A stretch of DNA of 41,549 bases from the NCBI GenBank assembly GCA_964489265.1, contig CAZAXX010000011.1:1-41549 (forward strand), written 5' to 3'. The notes beneath the pieces are model-generated. The model worked only from the letters and a program-made list of their open reading frames with translations. It ran no database searches and was not told the origin of the DNA. A program made the position numbers and the translations under genes. Shown here one piece after another: positions 6,798 through 27,014 of the stretch (position 1 is its first letter; each line of letters opens with the position of its first letter). The DNA comes from an uncultured Coxiellaceae bacterium (GTDB lineage: Bacteria > Pseudomonadota > Gammaproteobacteria > DSM-16500).

Positions 6798-6808
6798 AAT
6801 AGTCCTTG

Positions 6809-6874
6809 TGTCATCCTGAACGAAGTGAAGGATCTCCTTATATCTGGAGGTCCTTCGCTGCGCTCAGGATGACA
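6809..6874. mobile_element. MITE family 1 copy (diverged): 28-bp imperfect inverted-repeat hairpin element
   Basis: The left arm is tgtcatcctgaacgaagtgaaggatctcc and the right arm ggaggtccttcgctgcgctcaggatgaca. It lies between the convergent dcp-like (+) and hydrolase (-) genes, and the hydrolase TGA stop (6864..6866) plus its last 3 codons fall inside the right arm. Confidence 0.75.
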
Positions 6875-8204
6875 AACCTGGCATTGACGATTTTCTTGTT
6901 AAATTCTCATCATGCACTTCAACTACTTTCTTATAATAATCCAACGCAGCACGCCCTTGCCTGCGCTCAGCGTCAAGCGTTAAATTTGCCATCGAACCAA
7001 AATGCCCCATCCCTTCGGGTGCATACACCCAAGGACCTTTCATTTCTAGCGCAGTTAAAATCGCTTTTGTTTCCTGACTATAAGGAACTTTTTCTCGTTC
7101 CAATGTTTTTACTACAGTCACATCAGGCAAAAGAATCCCATCGCCATGTTCCATCGCCCCAATTCCCAAAGCATGTTTCATTTGCTCCATGACGGTTTCT
7201 GTACCGTGAGATTTTTCAGTATTCACATTAAGATAGTGTATGCAATTCGGATTACATTTTTTTATTGCCTGGATAGAATCCACATCCAAATCACCGCCCG
7301 CATATAAAAAAGTCGTCGCGATAACATTCGCTAAATTAAGTGGAACACCTAATTTTGAATGCAGCATGCCTGCCATGGCAGCCGAATAAGAGGAATAAGC
7401 ACGATCCATAAAAACAAGTAAATCAACACCATGCTTATCCTTAAAATAAGCAGCAACTTGCACAGCAATACTGCCGCCAAAACAATAACCATATAAATGC
7501 AAATTTTTTTCAAGTTCGGCATTTGTCCAATTCATTTTTTTTGCAAGATCATACACTTCAGCAATACCTGCATTGACAAAATCGACACTAGAGTCAGGGG
7601 GGTTATTTTCAGTAATACCTGGATAATTAAATACGCGGGTACTGCATTGCAACTTGGCATTTTCACGCTTATATTGATCCAATCCTATTTGATACATTTC
7701 CGCCGCAGCATTAAAAACTATTCTATAGCGTTGTACTTTTTCATCTTTATTTTCAAGTGGAATATCAGCACTATCAATTTCAATTCCATTTAAACCTTTT
7801 ACTTTATGAGCGTATTCTTTGGGAAATTCCTGGCACTTTTTTTGTAGCTTAGCAATATTCAAGGTATATAAAGGAATGATAGGTAAAACAATGCCGCGCG
7901 CGAAGCGTCCGCCGACCCAAGAAGGAAAAATAATGGAAACGCCGGATAACAAAAGCGTAATAGGAAATGCAACCGTGATTCCCAACAAATTTCCGAGAGC
8001 CGCTTTACGTGCAGCAGGATCCACAATGCCATCGATTAAATTTAAAATTAACTTTCCAGTCAGCGGAACGATTGCTACACCACTTAAAAAAAATGTGGCT
8101 AGCCATGCTGCACGTGTTGCAATCGGTTTTTTAAATTCTTGAACCCGAGAAGAATGAATAATATATTTTTCAGTTTCTAAAGTTGAATTAACTTCGCCAG
8201 CCAT
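6864..8204 (-). CDS. membrane-anchored alpha/beta-hydrolase-fold protein with a Cys nucleophile elbow (GYCFG)
   Basis: Two N-terminal TM helices are present (AAWLATFFLSGVAIVPL; LLGITVAFPITLLLSGVSIIF). The nucleophile-elbow-like motif reads HLYGYCFGGSIAVQVAAYF, a G-x-C-x-G variant as seen in dienelactone-hydrolase-type enzymes. AAGGA-N8-ATG precedes the start. Confidence 0.5.
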   Translation of the reverse strand: MAGEVNSTLETEKYIIHSSRVQEFKKPIATRAAWLATFFLSGVAIVPLTGKLILNLIDGIVDPAARKAALGNLLGITVAFPITLLLSGVSIIFPSWVGGRFARGIVLPIIPLYTLNIAKLQKKCQEFPKEYAHKVKGLNGIEIDSADIPLENKDEKVQRYRIVFNAAAEMYQIGLDQYKRENAKLQCSTRVFNYPGITENNPPDSSVDFVNAGIAEVYDLAKKMNWTNAELEKNLHLYGYCFGGSIAVQVAAYFKDKHGVDLLVFMDRAYSSYSAAMAGMLHSKLGVPLNLANVIATTFLYAGGDLDVDSIQAIKKCNPNCIHYLNVNTEKSHGTETVMEQMKHALGIGAMEHGDGILLPDVTVVKTLEREKVPYSQETKAILTALEMKGPWVYAPEGMGHFGSMANLTLDAERRQGRAALDYYKKVVEVHDENLTRKSSMPGLSS

Positions 8205-8291
8205 TTTTATATTCCTTTATGAATGTATTCTCTTTAAAATGCGGCCATAATATTCCAATTAATTTACTGATACAACAAAGGATTGTGATTT

Positions 8292-9749
8292 ATGTTTTCA
8301 CGCTTGAGCAAGACAGCTGGACGAATTAAATATTTATTTTTTGACTGGATCAAAACAAGGTTTCAGCAAATGTTTACCCCATCGCAATCCAACATGCTGA
8401 GTATACGAGTCGTGCCAGGAAAACATATAGTCGTCGTGTCTCCATATAAAATGCCAGCCACAACTGCGACAAAATTATTAAAAGAAATCACCCCAGCGTC
8501 AGAAAACAAAGCACGTCGCATTTATAATTTCATACCTTTTTACACCGGTGCAATGCCTTTTTTAAGCTTGCCAGATGCTGAAGCACTTCCCATACGCAAA
8601 AAAAGAATTGTCCCTTATTTGCATGCGATGCTGAAAAATATTAATTTTTCAGCTGAAATGACTGGGTTAATCGAGAAATTACGGCTAGATCAAACTGCTC
8701 AACCTCGGGCAGAAATCATAGGTGATCATTTTATAGATTTATTTGCCCGAAATTTACTAGGTGTTGAATTTCCTGAGGAATTAAAAAAATCACTCAAGCA
8801 GACTGATAGTGACTATTCCATTTTGTTTTGTTTATTACCTCCTGCTGCAGCAAATTGGCTAACTCTGATTCCATCGATAAGAAAGTTACGCAATGTGTGT
8901 CACACTGAGATTAGGCGTTTTTTAGTTGATACGATTGGAAAAATTAAAACAGATGATTTTCATTTTAAACAAATGAAAAAAAATTTTCTTCTCGATTTAA
9001 TATTAGAAAAAAAAGGCGATCCGAAGTTATTATCCAATAAAGACATCGAAGACTTAGCCGCTGATCCAGAAGTCAAACTGTGCGTTGCTGTTGTACTGGC
9101 AACAAATAATTTGACACGCGCCATGAGTTTTTTAGTAGGATGTTTGACGACCGCAATTCAGACAAATTTATTGATTGAACTATTGGATCAAGAATCGATT
9201 CAGCCAACGGATTTATTGCAACAAAAGAAAATGCCGTTGCTCCATGCAACTTATTTAGAAACGTTACGTTATGCGGCAAGAACAGGAATTATACGTAATA
9301 TTCAATCCGAAATTAGAATTGATGATATTAACATTCCCGCGAATTCATTAGTGATGTTTCCATTTGATTCATCCAGTCAGATGGGTAGCGCTAAATATCC
9401 TTGCTATCAATTTGCTCCAGAGCGATTTCTCGATGAACAAAAGCAACTGCGTCCCGAGATGAAGCTACAGGAAGGTGTTTTCACTCCATTTGGTATAGGC
9501 TCTAGAAACTGCCCAGGGCAACGCATCAGCGAGCAAATGATTAAAATCTATTTGGTAACGTTACTGAATGCGGTGAAAAAATTTTCTAGTTACAAATATA
9601 CTTTTTATGATGAGCCGGCTGGTGATACAGCCAGGAATTTTGTACTCACCTATTCAATTAGATCTTCTTTATTTAACCCATTTAAAGGAAAAGAAGAACA
9701 AGAAGTGGCGGAGAAAATAACTGAAAATATCGTAGGATATTGTTTATAA
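8292..9749 (+). CDS. cytochrome P450
   Basis: The heme-thiolate loop FTPFGIGSRNCPG (F-x-x-G-x-R-x-C-x-G) has its Cys codon at 9510..9512. An ExxR motif (ETLRY) lies upstream, and 485 aa is a typical P450 size. Confidence 0.75.
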   Translation: MFSRLSKTAGRIKYLFFDWIKTRFQQMFTPSQSNMLSIRVVPGKHIVVVSPYKMPATTATKLLKEITPASENKARRIYNFIPFYTGAMPFLSLPDAEALPIRKKRIVPYLHAMLKNINFSAEMTGLIEKLRLDQTAQPRAEIIGDHFIDLFARNLLGVEFPEELKKSLKQTDSDYSILFCLLPPAAANWLTLIPSIRKLRNVCHTEIRRFLVDTIGKIKTDDFHFKQMKKNFLLDLILEKKGDPKLLSNKDIEDLAADPEVKLCVAVVLATNNLTRAMSFLVGCLTTAIQTNLLIELLDQESIQPTDLLQQKKMPLLHATYLETLRYAARTGIIRNIQSEIRIDDINIPANSLVMFPFDSSSQMGSAKYPCYQFAPERFLDEQKQLRPEMKLQEGVFTPFGIGSRNCPGQRISEQMIKIYLVTLLNAVKKFSSYKYTFYDEPAGDTARNFVLTYSIRSSLFNPFKGKEEQEVAEKITENIVGYCL

Positions 9750-9867
9750 ACGAAATCATGATCTGCCTATCTTCTATCTTTGTTAATAGTTCCTTAAGGT
9801 TAAAGATGTACATTTACCAAGCAAAACAAGGGGTTGTAACTATTATAAATGAAGAGGTAGCATTCCG

Positions 9868-11178
9868 ATGTCGACCACGCGAATCATCAATATCAATTTA
9901 TCCAAATTAGATCCAACTATTCGTACGAATCTTTCTCAGCTGTGTGTCTATTTATTAGGGTTAAAACCCAGCGATAAAGAAGATTATTTTGAAAGCGCAT
10001 ATTCTCATTTTTTTGGTACAAAATTATATTCTGCCCTAAAGGTTAAATTTGAACGTAATCCCCAGCTTAAGAACTTTGCGAGCAAAGAAGTAATCGACCA
10101 AATTATAGAAGATTTAACGCATTGCATTGGTGCTATTTCTGATGATGAAATAATACAAACATTAAAAAAACAGATTGCTGATGAAGCTAAAACATTAAAT
10201 GCCAATCCTCACATTGAATGCTTGCGAGAGTACCAAAATAAAGCCGCGGAATGTTTTAAAGGTACACCCGTTCTAGAGTCTTCAGAAATAGCATGGGAAA
10301 AAACGCTTGCTTGTTTAAACAAGGAAGTATATTACAGAGAAAGCTTGAAATACCTTAATTGGGGTAATCTGAAGTTAGGTATTGGATTTATGGTTGTGCT
10401 CATGTTGTTTCAAAAATTTATATTTGATTATTTGAATGCGCGCGCACCAGAGAACACCAAATTTCTTGCGCACGTTAGCGAGACCCAAAGCGAGCAACAG
10501 ATGAAGTTCATGCTTCTTATTTTTACGGCTACACTTGCCAGCGTAGCTGTCAACCCAATCAAAATAAAAGTCAATTTTTCTGCGTTCGATGATGTAATAA
10601 CAACTCGATTTGGACAAGTAATTAAAGATAACTTGGTCAAGAAATCGGAACTCGAAAAGCGTATCAAATTAGCTGATCCTACTTCCAATACGACAGCCGC
10701 TTCTTGTGAATCATCCGAGATGACTACACCTGTCGAAGAAGATAAACCCGCGCCGAAAAAAGAAAAACGTAAATATCAAATTTCTTATTCTGCTGAACCC
10801 AGTGTAGAAGAAAAAAATGAAGTCATTCCTCCCAAAATTCGTCTGAATGGCAGTATTTTTTATTTAAATCAACATCCGAGCGGTCGTTGTTATACTCGTT
10901 ATAATGAAAATGAAATGAAAGAAAAAATTCCGCGCGACCGTCAACGCATTGTTATGCCAAAAATAAAGAGTGCTATTGAGGGTGGCAGAGTAGATGACCC
11001 AGTAAGACCTGGTATTGTAAAAGTTGAGGAAACCGAGCTGAAAAAGTTCCCGGATGGCTGGAAATTAAGAATCAAAGAAAATGAACGATTTGGATATGCA
11101 TTACGTGCTCCCGAAGAAGACGAAAATGAATGTGGCATGGAACAAGTATTTAGTCCAAGGGAACTGAAATATCATTAA
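9868..11178 (+). CDS. hypothetical protein, effector-like (central bipartite hydrophobic hairpin, Lys/Glu-rich C-terminal half, Glu-rich C-terminus)
   Basis: Two adjacent hydrophobic segments are present (LGIGFMVVLMLFQKFIF and MKFMLLIFTATLASVAVNPI). The C-terminal 20 aa (APEEDENECGMEQVF...) are acidic, like the E-block of type IVB secretion substrates. I recognise no enzyme motifs. Confidence 0.45.
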   Translation: MSTTRIININLSKLDPTIRTNLSQLCVYLLGLKPSDKEDYFESAYSHFFGTKLYSALKVKFERNPQLKNFASKEVIDQIIEDLTHCIGAISDDEIIQTLKKQIADEAKTLNANPHIECLREYQNKAAECFKGTPVLESSEIAWEKTLACLNKEVYYRESLKYLNWGNLKLGIGFMVVLMLFQKFIFDYLNARAPENTKFLAHVSETQSEQQMKFMLLIFTATLASVAVNPIKIKVNFSAFDDVITTRFGQVIKDNLVKKSELEKRIKLADPTSNTTAASCESSEMTTPVEEDKPAPKKEKRKYQISYSAEPSVEEKNEVIPPKIRLNGSIFYLNQHPSGRCYTRYNENEMKEKIPRDRQRIVMPKIKSAIEGGRVDDPVRPGIVKVEETELKKFPDGWKLRIKENERFGYALRAPEEDENECGMEQVFSPRELKYH

Positions 11179-11190
11179 TAACGGGGTTTT

Positions 11191-11297
11191 GTCATCATAA
11201 TAGCTGCTTTTGTCATCCTGAACGAAGTGAAGGATCGCCATGTTATAACGTAGCGATCCTTCACTTCGTTCAGGATGACAGAGCCCTCAGGATGACA
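11191..11297. mobile_element. MITE family 1 copy (perfect core 11211..11280 plus flanking partial arm)
   Basis: The core is tgtcatcctgaacgaagtgaaggatcgc - catgttataacgta - gcgatccttcacttcgttcaggatgaca, a perfect 28-bp inverted repeat with a 14-nt spacer. An extra ctcaggatgaca lies at 11287..11297 and a gtcatca fragment at 11191. Confidence 0.8.
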
Positions 11298-11311
11298 ACG
11301 CCTTCGTTAGA

Positions 11312-12628
11312 TCAAACCCACAACTTCTTTGCAATCTTACAATAAACTTCTTTCTCCCCACTCACATACGGCGCAATACGACAATCCATCGTAAAACTCG
11401 CTAATGTATAAACATCTTCACGCGTTAATTTTTTTTCTGCAGAAACTTTGTCAATCATAGCCAGCGAAGCTGTTTTCATTGCTGCTTCCAAATCCGCATT
11501 TTTGCCATGCGTCACAAAATACTGGGCGTTATCTGACTTCAGTAAAGTTGGCTTGCTTTGAGAATTTTTAGGAACCATACAATAAACACCCTGCACGCCA
11601 TTCACCACTTCTGCAATTGGGCAATTCCAAGTTGCTAGCATGATTTTTTCCGCTTCATCGGCTGAGACATGACGTATATCCATGATAAGTTTAAGCGTTT
11701 CATTTTGCAGAATATCAAATGCTTTATTTAAATCTTTATCATAACCAACGGCAATCCAATCTGTTTTCGTTTCTGCGCGTGGCCAGGTTAATGATTTATT
11801 TTTTATAACATCAATTGTCACGTTAAATTCACTGAATGCTGTTTCCATTGCAGTTAAATCAATTTCACCATTACCCTGCCCTGCATGTGAATCACCCGAC
11901 CAAACCAACGCACCTTTCACAAAAACCGGTAAATACAATGTGGAACCTTCAGTTAATTCACGCAAATCCATATTCCCACCAAATTGCCCAGGAGGCCCTG
12001 AACTATATTTTCCAGGCTCTTTGCGTGCAACCGCGACTACGCCTGGAAATGGCGCGAGTGGAATCGTGATGCCAGGTAAAAATGCCATCTGCATTTTCTT
12101 AAGATCGAGATAGTAATATCTGACGTAAGGATTTTTATCTCCAAAAATTTCCGGAAATAAGCCTTTGCCAGGCGTACTATCATTTGATGCATAAGAGCGA
12201 GGTATAATTTTGTTAATGTGGATTTTTAACGTATCACCTGGTTCTGCACCCTTCACGTAAATAGGCCCTGTAAGCGTATGCGGCCCTCGCCCTTCGACCG
12301 CTGTATTCAGCTCGATAATTTGCTTGATAGTCGTGCCAGGGACGACTTGATTGGCTGCTGCAGCTAATGTTTCAATGACGACAGTTTCACCTGGATTAAT
12401 TGTTAAAACCGGCGTGGTTGAATTATCGAAAACACCCCACTGACTAGTAGCAGGTGTGCCAGGCAAAATATATTTTTTGAGTGTCGGTGAATCTGGAGCT
12501 ATCATATTAGCTTCTTTAGGTAAGCCAGATAAATAAGGTTGGCAATACTGGGTTTTGCTTGCATAAGAAGAAGAGATGAAAAACATTGCTAGAAAACAGC
12601 TGGATATAGCTTTATATTTTAAAGACAT
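11312..12628 (-). CDS. formamidase/acetamidase (FmdA_AmdA family) with N-terminal signal peptide
   Basis: Family motifs GPHTLTGPIYVKGAEPGD and GDSHAGQGNGEI are present. The N-terminus MSLKYKAISSCFLAMFFISSSYA is signal-peptide-like, and GGGAGG lies upstream of the ATG. Confidence 0.8.
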   Translation of the reverse strand: MSLKYKAISSCFLAMFFISSSYASKTQYCQPYLSGLPKEANMIAPDSPTLKKYILPGTPATSQWGVFDNSTTPVLTINPGETVVIETLAAAANQVVPGTTIKQIIELNTAVEGRGPHTLTGPIYVKGAEPGDTLKIHINKIIPRSYASNDSTPGKGLFPEIFGDKNPYVRYYYLDLKKMQMAFLPGITIPLAPFPGVVAVARKEPGKYSSGPPGQFGGNMDLRELTEGSTLYLPVFVKGALVWSGDSHAGQGNGEIDLTAMETAFSEFNVTIDVIKNKSLTWPRAETKTDWIAVGYDKDLNKAFDILQNETLKLIMDIRHVSADEAEKIMLATWNCPIAEVVNGVQGVYCMVPKNSQSKPTLLKSDNAQYFVTHGKNADLEAAMKTASLAMIDKVSAEKKLTREDVYTLASFTMDCRIAPYVSGEKEVYCKIAKKLWV

Positions 12629-12700
12629 GCGCCCCTCCCTGGAGTGATTTTGTTAATTATAAGCACGATTGCCCAGTGAAAGAAATGGAGAAAATCAAAT

Positions 12701-13756
12701 ATGGATTCAAGAGCTGAGGAAGTAAAAGAAGAAGTAAAACCTACTCCAGCTGAGAACTTTAAAAAAGTAATAGAGGAACTCAACTCGCTTGGAGAACTCT
12801 TACTAAGTCCCGTAAAAGTTTACTATGCCAACCGCGCATTAAGCGGTCAGTTTGTGCCAATACACGAATATACTGTCGTAGCAACCAATTTTTACAATTA
12901 TTCAAAATCATCGAAAACATTTTATTTAGGCTTCGAATGGCACCTATCCCGTGAGAAAATTAAGGTGCCCGATTCATTCGAGCCCACGTCTTACTGCTTT
13001 CCATTAAGTCCTGATGAAAAAGTATGTTTAGGTGATAGAAAGGCTTTTGAAAAGCAGACAGGTTACTCCGTTGTGCTGGACTCTATAAAAGCGACTCATG
13101 TCTATGAAGTATTTCAGGAACAACTTACCTGTCTACAATACGTTAAATCCCAGGTAGAAGAGAAAAACGAAGATCGCGTTAATCGAATTGCAAAGCGCCT
13201 AGTATTTTTTAACATGTTTCCCGCTGCAGACAATGCATTCTCTGCAAATTGCAATAAGGCAACCGCGACGTTTTTACAAGAGGCTGAAGACCGTTCTGCG
13301 AAACAAGGTTTTAGACCTAAAAAAACAATCACAGGTCGCTCGCCCTTATCTATCTACTCAGTCCATCGAATGTTTCTTTGGAATTCGGGACGCCAGCGAA
13401 TGCTGCTTGATCTTTTTATTAATAGAACGGAATTAACGACGCATGATTTTGCTCGCGCGACCGCGCTTCTTGCCAATACCGAACAACTTAACAAACTTGC
13501 CCATGATAAAAAATACATTCTTGATGTCATCGCAACCTGGCCAGTAAACCAGGAAATCATGGCGTTAGAACAAATCATGAATCCTGAAACACCATTAGGT
13601 GTAGTATTTTCCACACCGCAAAATCCGCTTACATCTTATTTGCCTGCAGCAGTTTCTACTCCCAATACATCGCGTGGGTTACTGGGTGTTGCGGCTGAAC
13701 GTTTAGAAAAATTAAAGAAAGAACAAGGAAGTGCTTTGGCTCCTCCTAACGCATGA
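12701..13756 (+). CDS. hypothetical protein
   Basis: The 351-aa ORF has GGAG 10 nt upstream and no motif I recognise. Confidence 0.5.
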   Translation: MDSRAEEVKEEVKPTPAENFKKVIEELNSLGELLLSPVKVYYANRALSGQFVPIHEYTVVATNFYNYSKSSKTFYLGFEWHLSREKIKVPDSFEPTSYCFPLSPDEKVCLGDRKAFEKQTGYSVVLDSIKATHVYEVFQEQLTCLQYVKSQVEEKNEDRVNRIAKRLVFFNMFPAADNAFSANCNKATATFLQEAEDRSAKQGFRPKKTITGRSPLSIYSVHRMFLWNSGRQRMLLDLFINRTELTTHDFARATALLANTEQLNKLAHDKKYILDVIATWPVNQEIMALEQIMNPETPLGVVFSTPQNPLTSYLPAAVSTPNTSRGLLGVAAERLEKLKKEQGSALAPPNA

Positions 13757-13766
13757 CAAAGAGCTC

Positions 13767-14930
13767 TTAAGGAGGACTATTCCGCGGCGTAGAAATCACT
13801 TTTTTCAATTCATCTTTTACTTCAGTGCCTTTTGAATACCATAATTTTGAATAATAAAACAAAGCGGTTGTCGATACACATGAGGCGGGTTTTAGAAATA
13901 CAGATGCGACACATTTTAAAAACAATACTGTTTTACTATCACGATTTTGCGCGATCACATGCGCAGTTCGATCGAATGTTTGTTCAAATAAATTCAGTTT
14001 TTCAAACGATGTTTTGTTTTCAATTGCAGGGATTTTACTTAATTCACGCGTCGCTTTATATTGGTCAACCGTGACTCGAAATTGTTTATTATTAGCATAT
14101 AAATTTTTAGTTACTTCATTTTTTTCATCATCAACGAACAAATTAACGTTGAATTTGTTTTGGATTACCGGTCTTGGGTTGTCAGCTTCATTTTTTTCCC
14201 AGACTACTGTATTACAATAACATTCATAAACCTGGGGAATTTCTTTTTTTACAATTTCCTCAATGTCATTTTTTAAATCGTTACAGTGTTGATTGCTTAC
14301 TTCAGACAAATAATTATTTAATAAATCCGCTTTAAATTGAGTATAATTATTGTCAGTTAAAAGAGTAATGAGCGACTTGCTAAAGGAACTGACATCGAGC
14401 AACTCAAAACCAGTTTCGCTCAACCGATGCAATGCTCTTGTTTTGTCGCCACAAGGTATACTTATCGTTTCATTTTCTTGATTTAAAAAATGGATAGCGA
14501 ATTTCGTGCGTGTCGTTTCATAATAAAGAACACCGTCTTGTTCATAGATATTGATGCACCAATCATTAGTGTCAGGTGCTGACGCTTCGTATTCAGTGGC
14601 GTTTTTAAATGGTGTTACCATCATATACGAAGGATTTTGACAATAATGTCTGAACAACCATTGAATATTTTGGTCGGAAAATTGGGCGTCGTTACGCAGA
14701 TACGCTTCAAATTCTTCTAACGTAAAATGGGTTGGTATCGATTTTCCATTAATTTTAAAAAAATCGCGCGGAATGTCTTTTTTCAGCTGATTCTTGCCAT
14801 CATCGCCCTTGGCGTCATTTTCGACGTTGAGTTGAATACCTGGATTGATGGGAACAAGTCGAGCTAACTGCTCACGATCTAAGTGATAGGGGTATGGTGC
14901 CACCACCTCGGTTCCACGGTTAAGACTCAT
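13767..14930 (-). CDS. hypothetical protein
   Basis: This 387-aa ORF is convergent with the previous gene across a 10-nt gap and has no motif I recognise. Confidence 0.5.
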   Translation of the reverse strand: MSLNRGTEVVAPYPYHLDREQLARLVPINPGIQLNVENDAKGDDGKNQLKKDIPRDFFKINGKSIPTHFTLEEFEAYLRNDAQFSDQNIQWLFRHYCQNPSYMMVTPFKNATEYEASAPDTNDWCINIYEQDGVLYYETTRTKFAIHFLNQENETISIPCGDKTRALHRLSETGFELLDVSSFSKSLITLLTDNNYTQFKADLLNNYLSEVSNQHCNDLKNDIEEIVKKEIPQVYECYCNTVVWEKNEADNPRPVIQNKFNVNLFVDDEKNEVTKNLYANNKQFRVTVDQYKATRELSKIPAIENKTSFEKLNLFEQTFDRTAHVIAQNRDSKTVLFLKCVASVFLKPASCVSTTALFYYSKLWYSKGTEVKDELKKVISTPRNSPP

Positions 14931-15030
14931 TAGGACGCTCTCTCGTTTTGGATTATAATTTTAATTTAATGGCCTAAATTATAGTTCAAAATAGCTTAAC
15001 GAATTCTTAAAACAACCTAGAGATCACTAA

Positions 15031-18452: not shown

Positions 18453-18474
18453 ACTAGCGTCATCGCGCACGCTT

Positions 18475-18544: not shown

Positions 18545-18562
18545 AAAGCCCGCTCTGGACAA

Positions 18563-18937
18563 TCAATCTTTAGGCGTCAAAAGAGAAGTTCCTGCAGCGC
18601 CATTATGAAAATCTTCTGGTTTAACAAACAGTGAAATCGTATCTTGAAAATTCCCATAACATGTCAATGTTGTATTTGGCGCCATGCGATTGTCTTTACC
18701 ATTACAGGTGACTGTCACGTAATCGGATGTTTTACCTGCGCTTGTCGTCTCACTCACATGCAGGATAAGTTTGTTAGGATTTTCTGGCCAAAGCAGAAAA
18801 AGATACCCATCATCTTGCTTTTTGATTTCCCAGGCTTCTGGCGATGGTGAAGCCGTTTTTTTAGTCATACTTGCAAAAGCCGGCATTGTTAAAAATGACA
18901 TGACTGCCACAAGTATTATTTTTTCCATAAGTTTCAT
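18563..18937 (-). CDS. small secreted hypothetical protein
   Basis: AGGAA-N5-ATG precedes the start, and the N-terminus MKLMEKIILVAVMSFLTMPAFASMTKK is a signal peptide. The protein is 124 aa. Confidence 0.55.
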   Translation of the reverse strand: MKLMEKIILVAVMSFLTMPAFASMTKKTASPSPEAWEIKKQDDGYLFLLWPENPNKLILHVSETTSAGKTSDYVTVTCNGKDNRMAPNTTLTCYGNFQDTISLFVKPEDFHNGAAGTSLLTPKD

Positions 18938-18979
18938 GTTAATTCCTTTTTTAAAATAGCAAAGTATTATAAGGGCATT

Positions 18980-19384
18980 TTAATCAACATGAAAATTTCT
19001 TAGCAACCAACCTTCACCTAATTGATCAAAGCAATCCCCAAGATACACAGATAATTCATCAGTCGACATGATATATTCATTTCCAAGCGTTTCTACTGAA
19101 TGATGCAGATAACGATTAAAATGTTTTTGACAAAAGTCGGTATAATCCTGGGTATGTAAAATAAAACAATGCCACATCTTATCCAGCTTTTCTAACGGGG
19201 CGATCATATGCGTTAAAAGTTGGCGCTGAAAGCGGTGCTCGCTTAACCAGAGCCAACTTAATAAATCCTGAAAAATTTGTTTCGCTTGTCCAGCCGCTAT
19301 TTCAGGATTTTCTTTTTGGAATAGGCTCACCACTGATTCATTTTCATAACCAATCAGATGGGAAAGCTCGAGTAAAACTGCCAT
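18980..19384 (-). CDS. hypothetical protein
   Basis: This 134-aa ORF has only a weak RBS. Confidence 0.4.
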   Translation of the reverse strand: MAVLLELSHLIGYENESVVSLFQKENPEIAAGQAKQIFQDLLSWLWLSEHRFQRQLLTHMIAPLEKLDKMWHCFILHTQDYTDFCQKHFNRYLHHSVETLGNEYIMSTDELSVYLGDCFDQLGEGWLLRNFHVD

Positions 19385-19537
19385 TTAAAAGATATGACAG
19401 CAGCTTTTTAAAAGCGATTGATCACCTGTGATTTTCAGAACGATTCGGCAAATTAATTCATTTTTGGACATTTTTTTTACTCCTCTGGGTTATATTTTTG
19501 GGGAGTATAATGTCAAAGAACGAGTTACGCAATATTA

Positions 19538-19606
19538 GTCATGCTGAACGAAGTGAAGGATCTCCATGTTATAACTCGGAGATCCTTCACTTCGTTCAGG
19601 ATGACA
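19538..19606. mobile_element. MITE family 1 copy (near-perfect hairpin; atGctg variant in left arm)
   Basis: The sequence is gtcatgctgaacgaagtgaaggatctcc - atgttataactc - ggagatccttcacttcgttcaggatgac. Confidence 0.8.
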
Positions 19607-19704
19607 ATACCCCCCACGATAACGATTCATATTGAAGTTGAACAACCCCACAAGCTATAGTACTTACCATACTAGTTAGTGCAGAACCTATAAGGACATA
19701 GTCG

Positions 19705-20736
19705 ATGCCAACACTCATTCTTCTCACCATTGCATATCAAATTCAAAACATTAAATGGCGTTATCTTTTTTTACTGCTGACTGCTATCAGCTTCGTAGCT
19801 AATTTTTATCATGAGATGTGGCTACAGGAAATTTATTCTATCGTTGTAGCTATGTTGCTTTTTATGCTGACGCCAGACTTTGCGCGCTGGTGGCAAAAAC
19901 GCAACGATCGAAATAATCCTGTTTCCTTTTGGAATTTTGCAAAAGAAACGATGCTACTCGCTAAATACAACAAATATAAATTGTTTTTTTGGGTTGTATT
20001 TCTGACTGTGTCTATTACTGCTATTTGCTTCTATACAGGTTATACCAATGAAGCATTGTTAGGCAGCCTATTAGTTGTTTTTATTCTTATCTATGGATTA
20101 AAAAATTTATTTTCCTTGATCCTGCCACCCGAATGGTTTTTACATGATGTCAGCACAGAATATACTTTTTTTACAGTGTTTATCGCATATTGGTTAGCTG
20201 ATTTAATTACCCAAAAACTGGGGTTTGAATTTCTACTTCCCATGCTATTAGCTGCGACATTATGCTTAGCAGGATTTTTTCTGGTTCAAAAAAATAATCG
20301 TTATCTAATTCCCGGCTGCGCGTTGATTTTAGCTGATATTCTTTGGCAACTTCTGCGACTCATACAAAATAATGATACTTATACACATTCATTTATCACG
20401 ACGGTAATTGTTTTAGTGCTCGCTATGCTGATTGGATTACTTTGGCTAATCAAAAAACCCGGTGTCTTCCCTATCGTCTATTTAGCATTATTTCAACTTT
20501 TTCGTTTTTCGACATTCACCTATGAAGCAACCGATCACGCGATTTCCAATGATCTCTCACTATCTGAAGCATCCGATTATATCCTTTATTTAGTATGCTG
20601 GATGTACATTGTGCCCATGTTATTTTGGATAGTTGGATTGAAGCAACTTCAATATGGTGGAACAAGCGTAGAACACCACGCCGATCGAGAAAAGAAACGT
20701 TTTGAGAATTTTAAAAAGAGACTTAATAATAAATAA
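19705..20736 (+). CDS. polytopic integral membrane protein (8 or more predicted TM helices), function unknown
   Basis: Hydrophobic helices recur throughout the 343-aa ORF, and AAGGA lies 9 nt upstream. Confidence 0.55.
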   Translation: MPTLILLTIAYQIQNIKWRYLFLLLTAISFVANFYHEMWLQEIYSIVVAMLLFMLTPDFARWWQKRNDRNNPVSFWNFAKETMLLAKYNKYKLFFWVVFLTVSITAICFYTGYTNEALLGSLLVVFILIYGLKNLFSLILPPEWFLHDVSTEYTFFTVFIAYWLADLITQKLGFEFLLPMLLAATLCLAGFFLVQKNNRYLIPGCALILADILWQLLRLIQNNDTYTHSFITTVIVLVLAMLIGLLWLIKKPGVFPIVYLALFQLFRFSTFTYEATDHAISNDLSLSEASDYILYLVCWMYIVPMLFWIVGLKQLQYGGTSVEHHADREKKRFENFKKRLNNK

Positions 20737-20771
20737 TTCTCTGCAGTTTAATTGGGCATAACAGCGCCCTA

Positions 20772-20799
20772 TTGACACTTTTCTTCCAGATATTATACA
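20772..20799 (+). promoter_or_regulatory. sigma70-like promoter candidate (TTGACA-N16-TATACA)
   Basis: A perfect -35 hexamer sits at 20772..20777 and a 4/6 -10 at 20794..20799. That places the transcript start near 20806, so the gene likely begins at the second ATG (20831). Confidence 0.35.
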
Positions 20800-20830
20800 C
20801 TGCTTGCAGATTTATCCTAATGAGATAAGC

Positions 20831-22237
20831 ATGTCTAATAGCAGAAACACCACATCCTCGACCACGTCGTTTATTTCACAAAAAATGCCGGCACAACCCA
20901 ATACAACGGTTGCGTCATTTTTAACAGATATCGCAGATGTTGATGGCGTAATTGATCTTGCTACGTTGGAAAAAATTGCTGGTGGCGGCACGCATGATAT
21001 CTTTCGATCGAAACAGCATCCTGCATTATTGTTAAAAGTCATGAGAGACACAGCAGGAAAAAATAAAGATGACCTCGCGCTACCGTTACAAATGCATGAT
21101 GATCAATGTGAAGTACTATATGAGACATTCGCACCATCGCGTTGTATTGTTGAAAACCGTTCAATACGACAAATAAAAAATCTTCAATCAAATCACGAAA
21201 CACAAGTGGCTATTGTGTCAGTCGTACCTTTTGATTCTTGTTTTGAAAGCAAAGAACAATTTGGTTTTAATGTCGTACCCATCGAATGTGATCCCTTACT
21301 CATTGAATCGAAGCGTCATTTGTATCAAATGGCAAATAGGGAATTATTGGGAGACAAGCAAGTAAAACCAAGTTTCTATGTCATGAAAAATTATCCTTTA
21401 CTCAACCCGCGCTTTGAAAAAATTTTTAAACTGCTTGAGACGGATGCGGGTCTAGCAGTAGCAATGCGTGAATTTCTAACGAAATATAAAAAGTTTTATA
21501 AAAGAAGCGGACTTTTGCTGGATACCATTGGTTTAGATAATGTTCTTTTTTATAAAGATGCAAATGGCTGGCAATTTAAATTAGGTAGTGTCATTAAACA
21601 TGATAGTGCTGCACTCACAAGGAAAACATTAGAGGCAATCAAAACTAATCCATCTATCGTGCACGATTCACTTTTATATCGTACTTCAATTTACTTAATG
21701 CCTGCTTGCATTCGTGCATTAAATGCTTGTGCTGAAAAAGTCGGGATAGGAAAAATCATAGATAATATTGTCTTAGATGAAAGTACCATTAATCGCTTAG
21801 CAAAAATGCATGAACAACTTGGCAAAGATCATCGCATTATCAATTTCGCAGAGCACGGCCAATTTGCCAAAGCGTTAGAGTTATTTCAACAGTATGTACC
21901 TGAAGAAAAAGAATATGATACAAGATTGCGAGACATGCTGGGAACACACTACTGGGAACATGTCAAAAAAGGTGGCCAGACAAATTCCCTGGAGGAGCTA
22001 GAAACGTATTTAACTATGTTGCGCGATCCACGAAATGATTTTCCGGATTTTAGAAAAAAAGCTGTGGAAGAAGCGACAGTTGGACTGCAAGATAAGCTAC
22101 AATCCATGCAAAATCTAGAGGAAAAAGTTTCTCATAAAAAATCATCAGCAACACTCTACGGAAAAGATTTTCGTGAAAAAAGAGAAAATGAATCTGATAA
22201 AGAATATGTGGCTAGATTATCGAGGTTGAGAAAGTAA
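20831..22237 (+). CDS. hypothetical protein; weak resemblance to an atypical protein-kinase fold
   Basis: The start is moved to ATG 20831 because of the promoter position. A Gly-rich loop plus Lys (IAGGGTHDIFRSKQHPALLLKV) and a later LLDTIGLDNVLFYKDANGWQFKLGSVIKHD segment are reminiscent of a kinase catalytic loop and DFG-like segment, but the spacing is unusual. Confidence 0.45.
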   Translation: MSNSRNTTSSTTSFISQKMPAQPNTTVASFLTDIADVDGVIDLATLEKIAGGGTHDIFRSKQHPALLLKVMRDTAGKNKDDLALPLQMHDDQCEVLYETFAPSRCIVENRSIRQIKNLQSNHETQVAIVSVVPFDSCFESKEQFGFNVVPIECDPLLIESKRHLYQMANRELLGDKQVKPSFYVMKNYPLLNPRFEKIFKLLETDAGLAVAMREFLTKYKKFYKRSGLLLDTIGLDNVLFYKDANGWQFKLGSVIKHDSAALTRKTLEAIKTNPSIVHDSLLYRTSIYLMPACIRALNACAEKVGIGKIIDNIVLDESTINRLAKMHEQLGKDHRIINFAEHGQFAKALELFQQYVPEEKEYDTRLRDMLGTHYWEHVKKGGQTNSLEELETYLTMLRDPRNDFPDFRKKAVEEATVGLQDKLQSMQNLEEKVSHKKSSATLYGKDFREKRENESDKEYVARLSRLRK

Positions 22238-22315
22238 GCTATTCCCGTCATCCCGCACTGAACTGTCTCTGTAATTTTTCCAAAGAATTTGTCCTGAATC
22301 TTGCAAAATTTAACT

Positions 22316-24415
22316 CTACGTGGCGGATCCTTGATTAAAACGCATAGTGACGACTGGGTTTGGCTGTTCTTCATTTATGAAAGAGATCATTAAATTTTCT
22401 TGTTCTTTGTCAAGATTGCCTTTTGTAATCTTCTGTGCAATGTCATCCAATATCATTTTTCTGACATCTAGATCAATACTTCGGTTCGCATACATTTTGT
22501 AAGCCGATAGATACTCACTTTTCACGTCTGGGTTTAATTGGCTAATACAGTGGTCCAGCTTGGAAAAAAAAGATAACTCATCTAAGAACTCCTGCTCAGT
22601 TTTAAATTCTTTAGCTATATTATATAAATTATTAATTGCTTCATATCTTGAAGATTGAGGAATATTTTCCTTAGGTATCTTAGATGATATCAAATCACAA
22701 CGCTTTACATATTCATAGAATTGAGTGTTATCATCTGATTTTTCAAATACCATTGTCATTGTAGGTAAGGACACTGAATTGAATTTATCTAGCGGATTCT
22801 CTTTGTATTCATCACCACGCATTTTTGTCCAGTGCACTAGGTTTAAACGAAGAGCTTGATCCTTACAATCCCTTATATCTTCAAAGTTAATGGAAGCTCC
22901 ATGCTCAATTAAAAATTGAGAAAGTGCATTATTTTTATTGTTAATAGCATAGAACAGTTTTGTGTGTTCAGCAGTATCTTTAGTATCAATTAAATCTTTT
23001 ATTACCAATACTGGGAGGCCATTCAACAATTCACTCGCGGCTTTGAAATTATTATTTTTTAAATGTGTATCGAGTTCTATTTCAAGATATGACATCAATG
23101 AATTATCCCCAGCAAGAGAATTTTTTTTATATAAAATTTGTGGGAAACCCCGCATCATCTCTGGAAATTGCGAAAATCGAGTTATGAAATCTTTAATAAT
23201 ATGAATAGCATTATTTCTATCAGCAATATTCAATATATTTTTGTTTGAAATTAAATTCCAAATACTATGGGAAAAACAGTCTATTACTGTTCCATGAGCT
23301 TTACTTTCGGTATTAATCGCAGCTCCATTTTTAATAAGAAGTTCAGCCATCTCAAATTTTCCATTAAGTGCTGCCCATAAAAGAGGAGTCAGTCCGTTAT
23401 CATCTCTCGTCTCAAGTTTTGCATTTTTTCCAATTAATAATGAAACTATCTGGAAATAACCTTGCCGAACAGCCATCATTAACGCAGTTGCATTTTTAGT
23501 TGTTTCCTTAAAAACTGGGGGTACAAAATCAAGGTCAATGGAAATCTCATTCTTTTCCGCAGCTGCAAAGATATCTTTTAGCTCTGTATCATATCCATTT
23601 GTCGGCGGATGGGAGGATGCATTCTCTGAATCAGGTGGTCGTGATGCTCCAATATAGATATTTGTCATTAAAAGCTCTTGTATCTTTATGATTTGCTTTT
23701 CTTCGCTATCCTTTAAAATGTTGTCCCAGATTTTTTCTGCCTCGTAGCAATCACGGTCAGGTATACAACGAATACCTAAATCTAGTTCAGCAGAATCTAA
23801 AAAATTCATAAATAATCTTTTGGGAGCGGAACGTTCTATACCATAGGCCGCTGTATGCTCTGGATGATCTAAGATATCATCTACAGTTGCATGAAAGGTA
23901 AATGTTAAGCATGCTAATGCTAACTCATTTCGCTTAAATAATTCCTTGTTTAATACCGATCGATTTAACCATGAAAGTATTTTTGTTCCACTCATCTCTG
24001 TTACGTAAAAGGATAGCCCTATGAATTTAAAACACTGCTCCATATGCAGCTGTTTAAGTTCAGGGTCAATGCTGTCTGCCTGTTTTATAGTGTCAAAATG
24101 AACTACACCTGGCATACCTTCTTGAGCAACAACAAATTTTCCTTTGCCAAAAATCTCCTTTGCTTTTTTAATCGTCTCATCATCCGCGTGATCAGGAAGC
24201 CCGGGTCTAGATCGAGCTTCAACTATGAGAGAGTTCAAAGCAGCTGCTTTAGGCACAAAACCAACAACCGCATGTCTTCGGAAGCCAGCAAAAGTTTCGT
24301 TGCAACTTTTTCTAATTAATTCCTTGGATTCACCATCAAATCTTATATTATTGAAGACATTATCGTTAACACCTTCGCTAAGTGAGTACAATCGTTCGCG
24401 TTTTCGTGTTTTCAT
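22316..24415 (-). CDS. ankyrin-repeat protein (eukaryote-like, effector-like)
   Basis: At least three consecutive ANK repeats are present (TALMMAVRQGYFQIVSLLIGKNAKLETRDDNGLTPLLWAALNGKFEMAELLIKNGAAIN...). The start is set at ATG 24415 with GAGGA-N5 upstream, because the track start at 24454 is a TTG without an SD. Confidence 0.75.
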   Translation of the reverse strand: MKTRKRERLYSLSEGVNDNVFNNIRFDGESKELIRKSCNETFAGFRRHAVVGFVPKAAALNSLIVEARSRPGLPDHADDETIKKAKEIFGKGKFVVAQEGMPGVVHFDTIKQADSIDPELKQLHMEQCFKFIGLSFYVTEMSGTKILSWLNRSVLNKELFKRNELALACLTFTFHATVDDILDHPEHTAAYGIERSAPKRLFMNFLDSAELDLGIRCIPDRDCYEAEKIWDNILKDSEEKQIIKIQELLMTNIYIGASRPPDSENASSHPPTNGYDTELKDIFAAAEKNEISIDLDFVPPVFKETTKNATALMMAVRQGYFQIVSLLIGKNAKLETRDDNGLTPLLWAALNGKFEMAELLIKNGAAINTESKAHGTVIDCFSHSIWNLISNKNILNIADRNNAIHIIKDFITRFSQFPEMMRGFPQILYKKNSLAGDNSLMSYLEIELDTHLKNNNFKAASELLNGLPVLVIKDLIDTKDTAEHTKLFYAINNKNNALSQFLIEHGASINFEDIRDCKDQALRLNLVHWTKMRGDEYKENPLDKFNSVSLPTMTMVFEKSDDNTQFYEYVKRCDLISSKIPKENIPQSSRYEAINNLYNIAKEFKTEQEFLDELSFFSKLDHCISQLNPDVKSEYLSAYKMYANRSIDLDVRKMILDDIAQKITKGNLDKEQENLMISFINEEQPNPVVTMRFNQGSAT

Positions 24416-24576
24416 GTTTGTCCTCGCTAAAGTACTAAATTTAGTATGACACAAAATTAAACAATGTGTTCTAATTCTGGCTGGGCGATTTTTGGTAGCT
24501 TATTGATATAACTAACAATATATAAAAGGATTTCAGCTGTGTTTAGAACACCCGCTATAACTCAAGAGATACTATC

Positions 24577-25317
24577 ATGCCTGGCAACAATATCTTGTCC
24601 TTATTAACACTTAATAAGGGATTCAAACGTCTCATTAAAAACTCGCCACAGCTCAACATCATTTATTTACAATGGATGATCCTGCAGATACCCCGCTATC
24701 AAGAAAAAAGAGAAAAAGAAATTCGTGCATCGATTATGAAATTAGAGACGCGTTTAGCGGAATCAAAGAAGAGTTTTAATTGCAGCATTGAGCCCAGTAA
24801 AGGGCCCAAAGACAGAGGAATATTTACGGGCATCTGCTGCACCCTGTCTGGATCATTTTGTAATTTCACGACTTGTATCACTCAATGTTGTAATAACTGT
24901 AGTTGCTGCAATCCATTTTGTATTGCTGGCTCAGCTTGCGGCAAAGGTGCATTTGGCGCATCTTGCTCGTGGGGAACCTGCTATCCAGCCGCCCCCGCAT
25001 GCATCACGGGTTACGCTTGTCTTGGTGTTGGTGTCTTGGCTTTAACTTATACTGCATTCCAAAATTGTTCTTTAGATTGCAATTATCAGTATTCTTTGAC
25101 TTCCTGTTGTATTAAACATCAGATCAGCAAGCAAACTTCAATCCTGGAAAGAGGTATTTCAGAAGAATGTAATGTACTTGAAGAACGTTTATTATTAAAA
25201 ATTTCATTTTTTATGAAAAAACTTAAACAAGTCTTGCCTGTTGTACCAGAAGAAAAGAGGGGAAAACAAAAAGTAAATGCGAGTGAACATGTTGGGCTTT
25301 TAGTTAAACCAGGATAG
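24577..25317 (+). CDS. cysteine-rich hypothetical protein (26 Cys clustered in ~100 aa, several CC pairs)
   Basis: The central region reads GICCTLSGSFCNFTTCITQCCNNCSCCNPFCIAGSACGKGAFGASCSWGTCYPAAPACITGYACLG...CSLDCNYQYSLTSCC. There is no good SD at the first ATG, and alternative starts exist at 24676 and 24736. Confidence 0.4.
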   Translation: MPGNNILSLLTLNKGFKRLIKNSPQLNIIYLQWMILQIPRYQEKREKEIRASIMKLETRLAESKKSFNCSIEPSKGPKDRGIFTGICCTLSGSFCNFTTCITQCCNNCSCCNPFCIAGSACGKGAFGASCSWGTCYPAAPACITGYACLGVGVLALTYTAFQNCSLDCNYQYSLTSCCIKHQISKQTSILERGISEECNVLEERLLLKISFFMKKLKQVLPVVPEEKRGKQKVNASEHVGLLVKPG

Positions 25318-25329
25318 AGTGGAAAAAAA

Positions 25330-25494
25330 TGTCATTGCCGCGAAATACTGTCATTCCCGCGAAGGCGGGAATCTATAAATCCCTTATGATAATGCCAAAT
25401 TGTTAAACTGACCTTGTAATAATTCATGATAGATTCCCGCCTTCGCGGGAATGACAGTATTTCGCGGGAATGATATTTTGTCGTGGAAATGACA
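25330..25494. mobile_element. MITE family 2: ~165-bp element with ~44-bp terminal inverted repeats, each containing its own GC-rich hairpin
   Basis: The left end is atgtcattgccgcgaaatactgtcattcccgcgaaggcgggaatcta and the right end tagattcccgccttcgcgggaatgacagtatttcgcgggaatgata...ggaaatgaca, around an AT-rich ~55-bp centre. The sub-hairpin is attcccgc-gaag-gcgggaat. The termini are TGTCAT/ATGACA, as in family 1. Confidence 0.7.
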
Positions 25495-26927
25495 CTAAGA
25501 ATCACTACTCTTTCGCCTAGGCAAATGAAGGTGAAGGTCAGCAAGCTCAGTGCCCGGTTCGGTGTCTTTATCAACCTTAGATTTAAATAGTCTGGCGTGG
25601 GATTTATTTGCTTTAGCTTCATCTTCCGGTGTTTTTTCCAGCGATTGAATTTGTTTTTTCATTTCTTTTATAATCTTAGGGTCCAGGGGATACGATAGGC
25701 ATTTTTTTAAAAGATCTAATTGAGTCTCTACTGGTTCAATCTTCTTTAGTTCATCTAAAATTTTCTTCTCTTTATCAAATAAAGTTACTAATCCTAAAGA
25801 TGCATTAGTCGCATCAACTTGATTTCCATGCAGACGTGCTACATCTATTGCCTGAATAAAATCAGCAACTGCCAATGCAAAGTTTTTCTGTTCAACATAA
25901 ATTCCTGCGCGTAAGAAATGGCTCGCATATGTCGCAAGATACAACTTTTGCTTATCCGCCGTGGGAGATTGTTTTTCAAGAGCGATAAATACGAGATAAT
26001 CGATCACTGCGAAGCATAACATTGACCACGAAGAAAATAGGCTTCTGTGAACTCAGGTTTTAATTCAACAACCTTGTCACAAAATTCGATAGCTTTTTTA
26101 TACTCACGCGCTTTCTGATGATGCTCTGCTTGTTGATAGAAATCCAAATAGTTTGTTGGTGGCGGCAAGGTAGAAGTCGGATCTTTTTTCAGTGCCTCTA
26201 TAAGTTTCCTAATTTCATCTTTCTGTTTTTCCCATTCAGGTTTTTTTAAATGCCTGCAGTCATGGTAAAATTCACGTCCTAATGGAACTGTTTTCTGCAG
26301 GCATTTTTCCAGCAAAACGATCTGAACTTCTCTGGATTGAATTTCTTTCATAATAAACGTAATGATTAAGTCATGAGTCTTTTGTACAGACATCCATTTG
26401 CTCAAGAATTTAGAGTATTCAGCATCCTCCTTATCACCACGAGCGATGGAATTTAGTATATGGATTAGATATTCTTCTTGATCATGCTTATAGCATCTCG
26501 CAAGATGCTGACGACATTTATTTTTTGTTTTTTCTATAACTGCAGAATCTTTAGATGGAATATCTTTAGATAGAATAGCTAGCGCTTCGTTATATATCCG
26601 GATGGCTATATCATAAAAGCCAAGATCTTCATATAAATGCGCTTTAGCATATAAAATGCTACTCATTTTTTTCAGATTTTTTTTAGCATCCGGATTTAAT
26701 ATTAAATACAGGTTATAGTCAGCAATAGCTTTACAAGCATCCTCTATTTTTTTCGAAGCAGCAATAACGTCTGCACGTACCAGATAAGCCTTTGCTGATG
26801 ATGGATTGGATTTTATGACATCGTCTAAATAAATTAATGCCTCAGCATATTTTTTTTCTTTATATAATTGAGCTGCTTTATTGAAATCAAAGCCAGAGGT
26901 TTTTTGTTCGCCACGATCCTGAGCCAT
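25495..26927 (-). CDS. TPR-repeat protein, apparently split into two overlapping ORFs (26004..26927 and 25495..26022; frameshift or authentic two-gene arrangement)
   Basis: Both ORFs are built of TPR-like helices (e.g. AKAYLVRADVIAASKK, KAREYKKAIEFCDKVVELKPEFTEAYFLRGQCYA and FALAVADFIQAIDVARLHGNQ). They overlap by 19 nt in different frames. Confidence 0.5.
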
Positions 26928-26979
26928 TTTAGCTACCTCTTTTCATGTCATATCCTTTAAATATAGCACATTGTACTGT

Positions 26980-27014
26980 TGTCATCCTGAACGTTCACTT
27001 CGTTCAGGATAACA
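26980..27014. mobile_element. MITE family 1 truncated copy (35 bp, internally deleted)
   Basis: The sequence tgtcatcctgaacg|ttcacttcgttcaggataaca retains both termini but lacks the central ~35 bp. Confidence 0.6.

Follow-up and report, generated by a model that had tools for sequence, protein, structure and literature searches.

Short palindromes in an uncultured Coxiellaceae genome are probably head-to-head dimers of a REP-like unit that flanks a small GIY-YIG gene in other bacteria

A contig of an uncultured Coxiellaceae bacterium (GenBank assembly GCA_964489265.1, contig CAZAXX010000011.1) carries five short palindromes scattered among its genes, which raises the question of what kind of element they are. 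We analysed the whole contig of this metagenome-assembled genome (MAG), 41,549 nt with a GC content of 37.7%, and refer to it as the window. A first-pass annotation, made from the letters alone, had described the palindromes, here called family 1, as miniature inverted-repeat transposable elements (MITEs). We find that dimers of repetitive extragenic palindromic (REP) sequences of the CGTC-tagged, Ssn-related type are a better class for them than MITEs. Probably, each element is a head-to-head dimer of a REP-like unit of ∼26 nt that belongs to the class of CGTC-tagged REPs and Ssn-related motifs (SRMs), and is the gene-less counterpart of the ssn cassettes, in which such units enclose a small GIY-YIG gene.

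The family itself is real. The 26-nt arm TGTCATCCTGAACGAAGTGAAGGATC has eight matches in the window when up to three mismatches are allowed, compared with none in 100 dinucleotide-preserving shuffles, and the eight arms pair into five palindromes at the places given by the first-pass annotation, with copy 4 beginning at 19537 (Table 1). A search of the window with the 10-nt head of the unit gave no further copies, barring one partial head beside copy 2. The general description as a small non-coding repeat of the “selfish or domesticated” type, located mainly at the 3′ ends of genes, also holds. The conserved arms are confirmed, but the spacers do not vary freely: copies 2–4 share the spacer core CCATGTTATAAC, and their spacers differ at 2–5 of 18 positions vs. 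0–2 of 52 in the arms. Shared arms together with a shared spacer indicate that one 70-nt element was copied within the genome. Judged from the sequences, the perfect arms of copies 2–4 are best read as the product of recent copying and not of selection on a long hairpin. Copies 1, 4 and 5 appear to be decaying. Copy 1 was rightly called diverged in that its right arm differs from the others, but this arm (sense form TGTCATCCTGAGCGCAGCGAAGGACC) is a distinct, internally compensated variant with GCGCAGC in place of ACGAAGT and one pair broken, not a plainly diverged one. The left arm of copy 4, AGTCATGC, has two mismatches, which break the tag and one stem pair. Copy 5 is internally deleted, as had been noted; the deletion spans the spacer and extends into both units, the left one losing its inner half and the right one 5 nt. 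The arms in the window carry the tag TGTC, except for the left arm of copy 4 (AGTC) and the right arm of copy 5 (a degenerate TGTT).

A classical MITE would derive from a DDE-type insertion sequence (IS) by internal deletion, with the 26-nt arms as terminal inverted repeats (TIRs) that are bound as double-stranded DNA (dsDNA), and it would leave target-site duplications. Inverted arms, a short variable centre, several copies and intergenic positions are what such an element would have. However, neither target-site duplications nor other direct repeats flank any of the five copies.

The element is not specific to this lineage. Scanning one genome per species for the exact 25-mer of the unit yielded at least 120 loci, in at least 120 species from ∼17 phyla; these include Nitrospirota, Bacteroidota, Bacillota, several phyla of the candidate phyla radiation (CPR), Acidobacteriota, Chloroflexota, Verrucomicrobiota, Omnitrophota, Pseudomonadota, Desulfobacterota and others. 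The layout is shared across loci and reads GTCAYYCTGA, a mini-hairpin and GAAGRATC, followed by a variable spacer of 10–45 nt and an inverted unit. This inverted second unit accompanies at least 59 of 127 units (median spacer, 23 nt), and solo and tandem units also occur in other genomes. The base preceding GTC is T in 96 of 129 cases and C in 28. In some copies in other genomes the mini-hairpin is replaced by a longer hairpin.

Each unit opens at its 5′ end with the unpaired tag (T/C)GTC, continues into a hairpin and ends in a short tail of C, usually followed by T-C. The hairpin begins with an A-T and a T-A pair and continues with three more Watson-Crick pairs, two tandem G·A/A·G steps, two further pairs and a G-N-A triloop. 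Numbered along the 25-nt unit, the pairs are 4-24, 5-23, 6-22, 7-21 and 8-20, then G9·A19 and A10·G18, then 11-17 and 12-16, with the loop at 13–15. To look at covariation we used a cleaner set of 86 distinct units, which replaced a looser pattern that gave about one third noise. In this set, 93.5% of the cells are paired within the arm, compared with 26–48% when the partner is slid out of register. Cells in which both bases have changed number 108 vs. 27 ± 5 in shuffles, and compensatory changes are seen in six of the seven pairs. The outer stem occurs as ATCCT/AGGAT, ATTCT/AGAAT, ATGCT/AGCAT or ACCCT/AGGGT, the inner stem and loop as GCGNAGC, ACGNAGT or GTGNAAC. Pair 4-24 is A-T throughout and pair 5-23 is T-A or C-G.

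Pairing between the two arms of a dimer behaves differently. Among 36 canonical partner arms in other genomes, 30 differ from the 25-mer at 3–7 positions, while all seven intra-arm pairs are intact in 35. As the complementarity between arms is not conserved and each arm keeps its own pairs, we conclude that the single arm is the unit under constraint. The proposal of the first-pass annotation that the long perfect hairpin is under selection is therefore not upheld. These observations also speak against a MITE, since internal compensatory covariation is needless in a dsDNA TIR and partner arms are commonly non-complementary, with solo and tandem units besides. The unit is strand-specific: only one strand can form the hairpin because its complement would carry C·T mismatches in place of the G·A steps. 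Thus, in a dimer, each DNA strand has its sense unit at its own 5′ side.

To find genes that accompany the unit we clustered all open reading frames (ORFs) within 1.5 kb of a unit; the results refer to the 120 loci listed. Ubiquitous superfamilies aside, the only specific recurrent neighbour is a small GIY-YIG protein of 90–100 aa, found at four loci (L002, L023, L047 and L049) and matching Pfam PF01541 at 8.5e-14. The exact 25-mer of the window flanks the gene at L023, L049 and L002. At L047, a sense unit precedes the gene and an inverted unit follows it, and next to the gene is a gene-less dimer whose inner ends resemble those of the cassette. At L049, a complete dimer stands on both sides of the gene. 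No RAYT (REP-associated tyrosine/HUH transposase, IS200/IS605 type), Y1, DDE or IS110-type protein recurs near the units at these loci. As no transposase family recurs, and as no transposase-bearing parent was found, the one longer element that has such ends being the carrier of a GIY-YIG gene, a MITE in the usual sense appears extremely improbable. The first-pass annotation had also considered that the copies might be parts of a larger known element, and this is partly so, given that the units are the inverted ends of unit-ssn-unit cassettes elsewhere.

The association holds in a larger sample. A metagenome scan with an alignment of Ssn-like proteins returned 80 homologues with 60–76% identity, and we looked for units within 200 nt of those genes that had enough flanking sequence. 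A sense unit was found upstream of 54 of 78 (69%) and an inverted unit downstream of 53 of 74 (72%); 40 of 72 (56%) have units on both sides. For comparison, the background more than 500 nt from the gene is 0.1 units per kb, and shuffled sequence gave one match in 235 kb. We also scanned viral contigs with the pattern of NTS, the repeat recognised by the Neisseria nuclease SsnA. Five loci were found in which GIY-YIG genes lie 25–47 nt from NTS units, two of them (L283 and L316) in the arrangement NTS(+)-gene-NTS(−). The proteins encoded there are 46–51% identical to those associated with family 1 (E 1e-21 to 1e-26). This degree of identity to NTS-flanked genes suggests that the family-1 unit is a further dialect of the same repeat/nuclease system.

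Three of the metagenome contigs, from related organisms, carry the same ssn cassette between the same two genes, which we take by eye alone to be prfB-like and lysS-like. The number of units differs: a single unit lies upstream of the cassette in one contig (L145) and a full dimer in the two others (L146 and L173), indicating that units turn over at a single locus.

Family 1 can be compared with three known repeat systems. The first is the superfamily of CGTC-tagged REPs, which have a CGTC tag (often TGTC), a stem that starts with A then T, a short tail and mostly head-to-head dimers, and for which no associated transposase was found (PMC3733652). CGTC-1 comprises dRS3 of Neisseria and RPE-6 of Rickettsia, and the superfamily also takes in RPE-4 (PMC3733652). 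Family 1 shares with it the CGTC/TGTC tag, the A-then-T stem, the short tail, head-to-head dimers with short spacers, occasional intragenic copies, deleted dimers and the lack of a link to RAYTs. The stems differ. CGTC-1 to CGTC-4 have fully paired stems of 8–9 bp with loops of 4–5 nt, whereas the family-1 stem has nine positions, two of which are G·A steps in tandem, and a GNA loop of 3 nt (5 nt if the closing C-G is counted). None of the repeat-derived peptides given for CGTC-1 to CGTC-4 corresponds to the family-1 unit (PMC3733652). That study found no associated enzyme, whereas here and in PMC11893778 the partner is a GIY-YIG gene.

The second system is that of SsnA, a GIY-YIG protein of 94 aa that binds the NTS repeat CGTCATTCCCGCGMAVGCGGGAATCYRG as single-stranded DNA (ssDNA) only, and on one strand only, and cuts just upstream of it; RNA is not bound, and ssnA itself lies in an NTS-ssnA-NTS arrangement (PMC11893778). 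In N. meningitidis the Ssn system modulates natural transformation, while its mobility and its role elsewhere are left open in that paper (PMC11893778). Motifs fitting a degenerate SRM pattern were found near 71% of ssn homologues and are enriched in symbionts (PMC11893778). The pattern, HGTCWYN(0-2)YYVSBRHN(0-5)WNVSBRGN(0-2)RNCYNB, is an operational search string from 29 genomes and not a definition. SRMs and family 1 have in common a 5′ HGTC tag followed by AT, a hairpin, a short tail, strand specificity, inverted copies around a single-domain GIY-YIG gene of ∼94 aa and a spread across phyla. The family-1 unit differs from the pattern in its core of CTGA-GCGNAGC-GAAG with two G·A steps and a GNA triloop. 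Its dialect is not mentioned in the main text of PMC11893778, and a literature search with sequence strings of the unit returned only unrelated primer sequences. By its sequence, family 1 appears to be a new dialect of a recently characterised repeat/nuclease class.

REPINs (REP doublets forming hairpins) with their RAYTs are the third system, reportedly described by Bertels and Rainey in 2011 and by Nunvar in 2010. The likeness is one of logic: two inverted REP hairpins and a spacer form the replicating unit, a single-copy enzyme gene is flanked by repeats, the hairpins are recognised in ssDNA, and the copies lie between genes at 3′ ends. If the family-1 palindromes were REPINs, a RAYT would mobilise them by acting on the ssDNA hairpins, and in mechanism no published system comes closer. 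Yet the REPIN tag is GTAG and not (T/C)GTC, and REPINs are lineage-restricted and vertically inherited, whereas the family-1 unit is identical across phyla. Moreover, the recurrent neighbours at the listed loci include no Y1/RAYT protein, no RAYT gene flanked by CGTC units is known from the CGTC survey (PMC3733652), and the gene that the units do flank encodes a GIY-YIG nuclease instead of a Y1/HUH transposase. We therefore regard mobilisation by a RAYT as very unlikely.

The palindromes could also be passive, serving as target sites for other mobile DNA such as IS110/IS1111-type elements, which the first-pass annotation had proposed, or filamentous phage. REPs are reported to serve as targets of ISs (PMC1525189), and dRS3 is used by Neisseria phage and by transposases (reference 30 of PMC11893778). 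In a variant of this idea the GIY-YIG gene does not propagate the dimers but is a parasite that homes into the spacers of dimers already in place; the ssn gene does sit exactly at the position of the dimer spacer, which fits homing as well as it fits an autonomous cassette. However, neither an IS110-like nor any other recombinase is a recurrent neighbour of the units at the 120 listed loci and the 80 loci of the metagenome scan, so that insertion by IS110/IS1111 elements left no signal in the loci sampled. A target-site role would also leave the origin of the units, their covariation and their spread unexplained, and we consider it quite unlikely.

Dimers of REP-like units related to ssn cassettes thus remain the preferred explanation, and the mechanism it predicts is as follows. 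Whenever the DNA is single-stranded, during replication, transformation or conjugation, a cognate small GIY-YIG nuclease of the Ssn family would bind the folded sense unit and, by analogy with NTS/SsnA pairs, nick a few nt 5′ of the tag, with dsDNA and RNA not being substrates. The strand asymmetry of the unit, in which the sense G·A becomes C·T on the complement, is the only observation made here that bears on the predicted strand-specific cleavage. The gene-less dimers of the window would be non-autonomous counterparts of the unit-ssn-inverted-unit cassettes in other genomes, and one 70-nt dimer would have been copied within this genome to give copies 2–4. Such elements would persist at the 3′ ends of genes, where they do least harm, and as side effects would donate stop codons and place very stable hairpins at the 3′ ends of mRNAs.

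A further step would be to regard the unit together with the Ssn-like gene as a pan-bacterial, horizontally spreading mobile element. The GIY-YIG ssDNA nuclease, in place of a DDE, HUH, serine or tyrosine enzyme, would then drive the copying of both cassette and gene-less dimers by nicking of ssDNA beside the hairpin followed by repair or template switching, partial heads would be the footprints of this process, and copies 2–4 would be recent products. We hold this extended proposal to be possible but doubtful.

Partial heads are a recurrent feature in their own right. Truncated heads, made up of the tag and ∼8–10 nt and followed by ∼8 nt of other sequence, stand in direct orientation just upstream of full units. 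They precede 17 of 126 units in other genomes, most often at a spacing of 19–24 nt, and are sometimes arrayed with a period of ∼20 nt; examples are L001, L073 and L120, as well as three sites in the window (Table 1). They may be footprints of cleavage and repair. Longer arrays were also observed. A Clostridiales MAG (L022) has three family-1 dimers in tandem at 5479–5850, with a period of 125 nt, and an IMG/VR contig (L216) has 13 matches to the NTS pattern, for eight of which positions are given, spanning 89–1186.

Several results weigh against family 1 being a dialect of the Ssn-related class. The published SRM pattern matches neither the family-1 arms nor their cross-phylum consensus. No ssn or other GIY-YIG gene is present within the 41.5-kb window, as searched with a GIY-YIG regular expression and by tblastn with four Ssn-like queries. 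The associated proteins (93–100 aa, Pfam GIY-YIG) are, from their sequences, only candidate members of the Ssn family (cd10448), and searches of NCBIfam and of PDB sequences gave no finer classification of the Ssn-like proteins. Recognition and cleavage of the family-1 dialect by a cognate Ssn are predicted by analogy, and the mobility of SRMs is putative in any system. The invariance of the tag, of the first A-T pair (4-24) and of both G·A steps is not independent evidence because the search pattern fixed them. Finally, folding with nearest-neighbour DNA energetics gave no signal for the isolated family-1 unit (−1.6 kcal/mol, z 0.1), and the units would be masked in the whole dimer, which folds as a single long hairpin at −33 to −36 kcal/mol; competition between this long hairpin and those of the units is to be expected where the homodimer is perfect. 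We set the null result for the isolated unit aside, as sheared G·A pairs and GNA loops are not covered by the nearest-neighbour parameters and we judged the covariation to be decisive.

The window contains a second palindrome family, family 2, which is a dimer of the NTS/dRS3/CGTC-1 type (Table 1). It fits CGTC-1, with the peptides SFPRKRES and VIPAKAGI. Its two units, of sequence TGTCATTCCCGCGAAGGCGGGAATCTAT, are the only matches to the SRM pattern in the window, compared with an average of 0.04 sites in shuffled windows. The family-2 dimer aligns end to end with WsnRNA46 of Rfam (RF02625, Wolbachia sRNA 46) at 52.1 bits and E 1e-10, below the gathering threshold of 65.3. The consensus of WsnRNA46 is, like family 2 of the window, a head-to-head dimer of the form TGTCAT...GATC, but its stem is of a Wolbachia dialect unlike that of family 2. 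Family 1 has no match to WsnRNA46.

With respect to genes, the window has four convergent intergenic gaps of more than 80 nt, each occupied by a palindrome of family 1 or family 2, and the remaining four convergent junctions are 78 nt or shorter or overlapping. Convergent genes border three of the five family-1 copies, whereas divergent genes border one and tandem genes another, so that the first-pass statement that most copies are convergently flanked holds for three of five. The copies are intergenic, with one qualification. Copy 1 is not strictly so because its right arm supplies the end of ORF 6864–8204(−), namely the last three codons (L-S-S) and the TGA stop (6864–6875). ORF 6806–7192(+) was correctly recognised as spurious; it is a read-through of the copy 1 repeat.

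Table 1. Palindromes, partial heads and occupied convergent gaps in the window.
Feature	Position	Strand	Structure	Setting
Copy 1	6809-6874		Head-to-head heterodimer; unit (+) 6809-6834, 14-nt spacer 6835-6848, unit (−) 6849-6874	
Copy 2	11211-11280		Perfect homodimer; unit (+) 11211-11236, 18-nt spacer GCCATGTTATAACGTAGC, unit (−) 11255-11280	Convergent ORFs 9868-11178(+) and 11312-12628(−) on either side
Partial head of copy 2	11286-11297	(−)	TGTCATCCTGAG, direct orientation	5 nt upstream of the copy 2 (−) unit
Copy 3	18475-18544		Perfect homodimer; units 18475-18500(+) and 18519-18544(−), spacer GCCATGTTATAACGCAGA; palindrome reaches ∼3-5 nt into the flanks	Between convergent ORFs
Copy 4	19537-19606		Decayed left unit 19537-19562(+), spacer TCCATGTTATAACTCGGA, intact unit 19581-19606(−)	Divergent ORFs 18980-19384(−) and 19705-20736(+)
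Copy 5	26980-27014		Internally deleted remnant; 14-bp outer stem, 7-nt loop	Between tandem (−) genes
Family-2 palindrome	25326-25494		NTS/dRS3/CGTC-1-type head-to-head dimer, 52-nt spacer	Fills convergent gap 25317/25495
Family-2 unit	25349-25376	(+)	Exact match to the published SRM pattern	
Family-2 unit	25429-25456	(−)	Exact match to the published SRM pattern	
Family-2 partial head	25330-25348	(+)		Outside the units
Family-2 partial head	25476-25494	(−)		Outside the units
Occupied convergent gap	6797/6864			
Occupied convergent gap	11178/11312			
Occupied convergent gap	18452/18563			
Occupied convergent gap	25317/25495			

The filling of all longer convergent gaps could mean that the role of the palindromes lies primarily in RNA, with 3′ hairpins that terminate or stabilise convergent transcripts or are processed to small RNAs. 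As single strands the whole elements do fold to long hairpins of −25 to −36 kcal/mol (z −9 to −14), and very stable hairpins with z of about −13 would suit such a role, as would the sub-threshold match of the family-2 dimer to WsnRNA46, a reported Wolbachia small RNA with a dimer consensus. Termination in particular, as suggested by the first-pass annotation, finds no support, since the hairpins lack a following U-tract and, of the 17 terminator-like sites in 6700–26699 (15.4 ± 4.1 expected by chance), none coincides with a copy. No match at the gathering score was found to any Rfam family in the window, and the sub-threshold matches of family 1 are to generic miRNA hairpins, far below threshold. 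Conservation lies in the single-arm hairpin and its 5′ tag, not in the long hairpin, and SsnA does not bind RNA (PMC11893778). The location at 3′ ends would also result from purifying selection against harmful insertions. Thus, a primary role in RNA is rather unlikely; it is not an exclusive alternative, as effects on RNA may well arise as by-products of REP-like dimers related to ssn cassettes.

A close syntenic relative of the window locus, for a comparison of filled and empty sites, was not found; the closest relative of the flanking amidase is 79% identical (L201) and has different gene neighbours. The window also contains a PvcA/PvcB-like isonitrile biosynthesis cluster at 31377–37049, with genes for DIT1_PvcA, a TauD-family dioxygenase, an FAD monooxygenase, an MFS transporter and an ATP-grasp enzyme. 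Eukaryote-like or unusual genes are located at 22316–24454, 8292–9749 and 27063–31244 and encode a 712-aa ankyrin-repeat protein, a cytochrome P450 and a 1393-aa protein with PPDK_N as its sole domain, respectively. Many ORFs of the window have no Pfam match (ORFans). Taken with the GC content, this gene content suggests a Legionellales-like gammaproteobacterium with an intracellular life, and the nearest homologues are labelled as uncultured Gammaproteobacteria.

Taken together, the repeats of the window point neither to a lineage-specific transposon nor to an unusual locus. Few short non-coding repeats of bacteria are distributed as widely as their units, with an identical 25-mer found from CPR bacteria to Acidobacteriota, and gene predictions contain many spurious ORFs and protein tails that derive from them. 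The published SRM pattern under-detects its class. The GIY-YIG genes that accompany the units provide a concrete candidate enzyme for the “orphan” CGTC-type REPs, and the link between this dialect and Ssn-like proteins enlarges the catalogue of candidate pairs of site-specific ssDNA nuclease and motif, which are of biotechnological interest.

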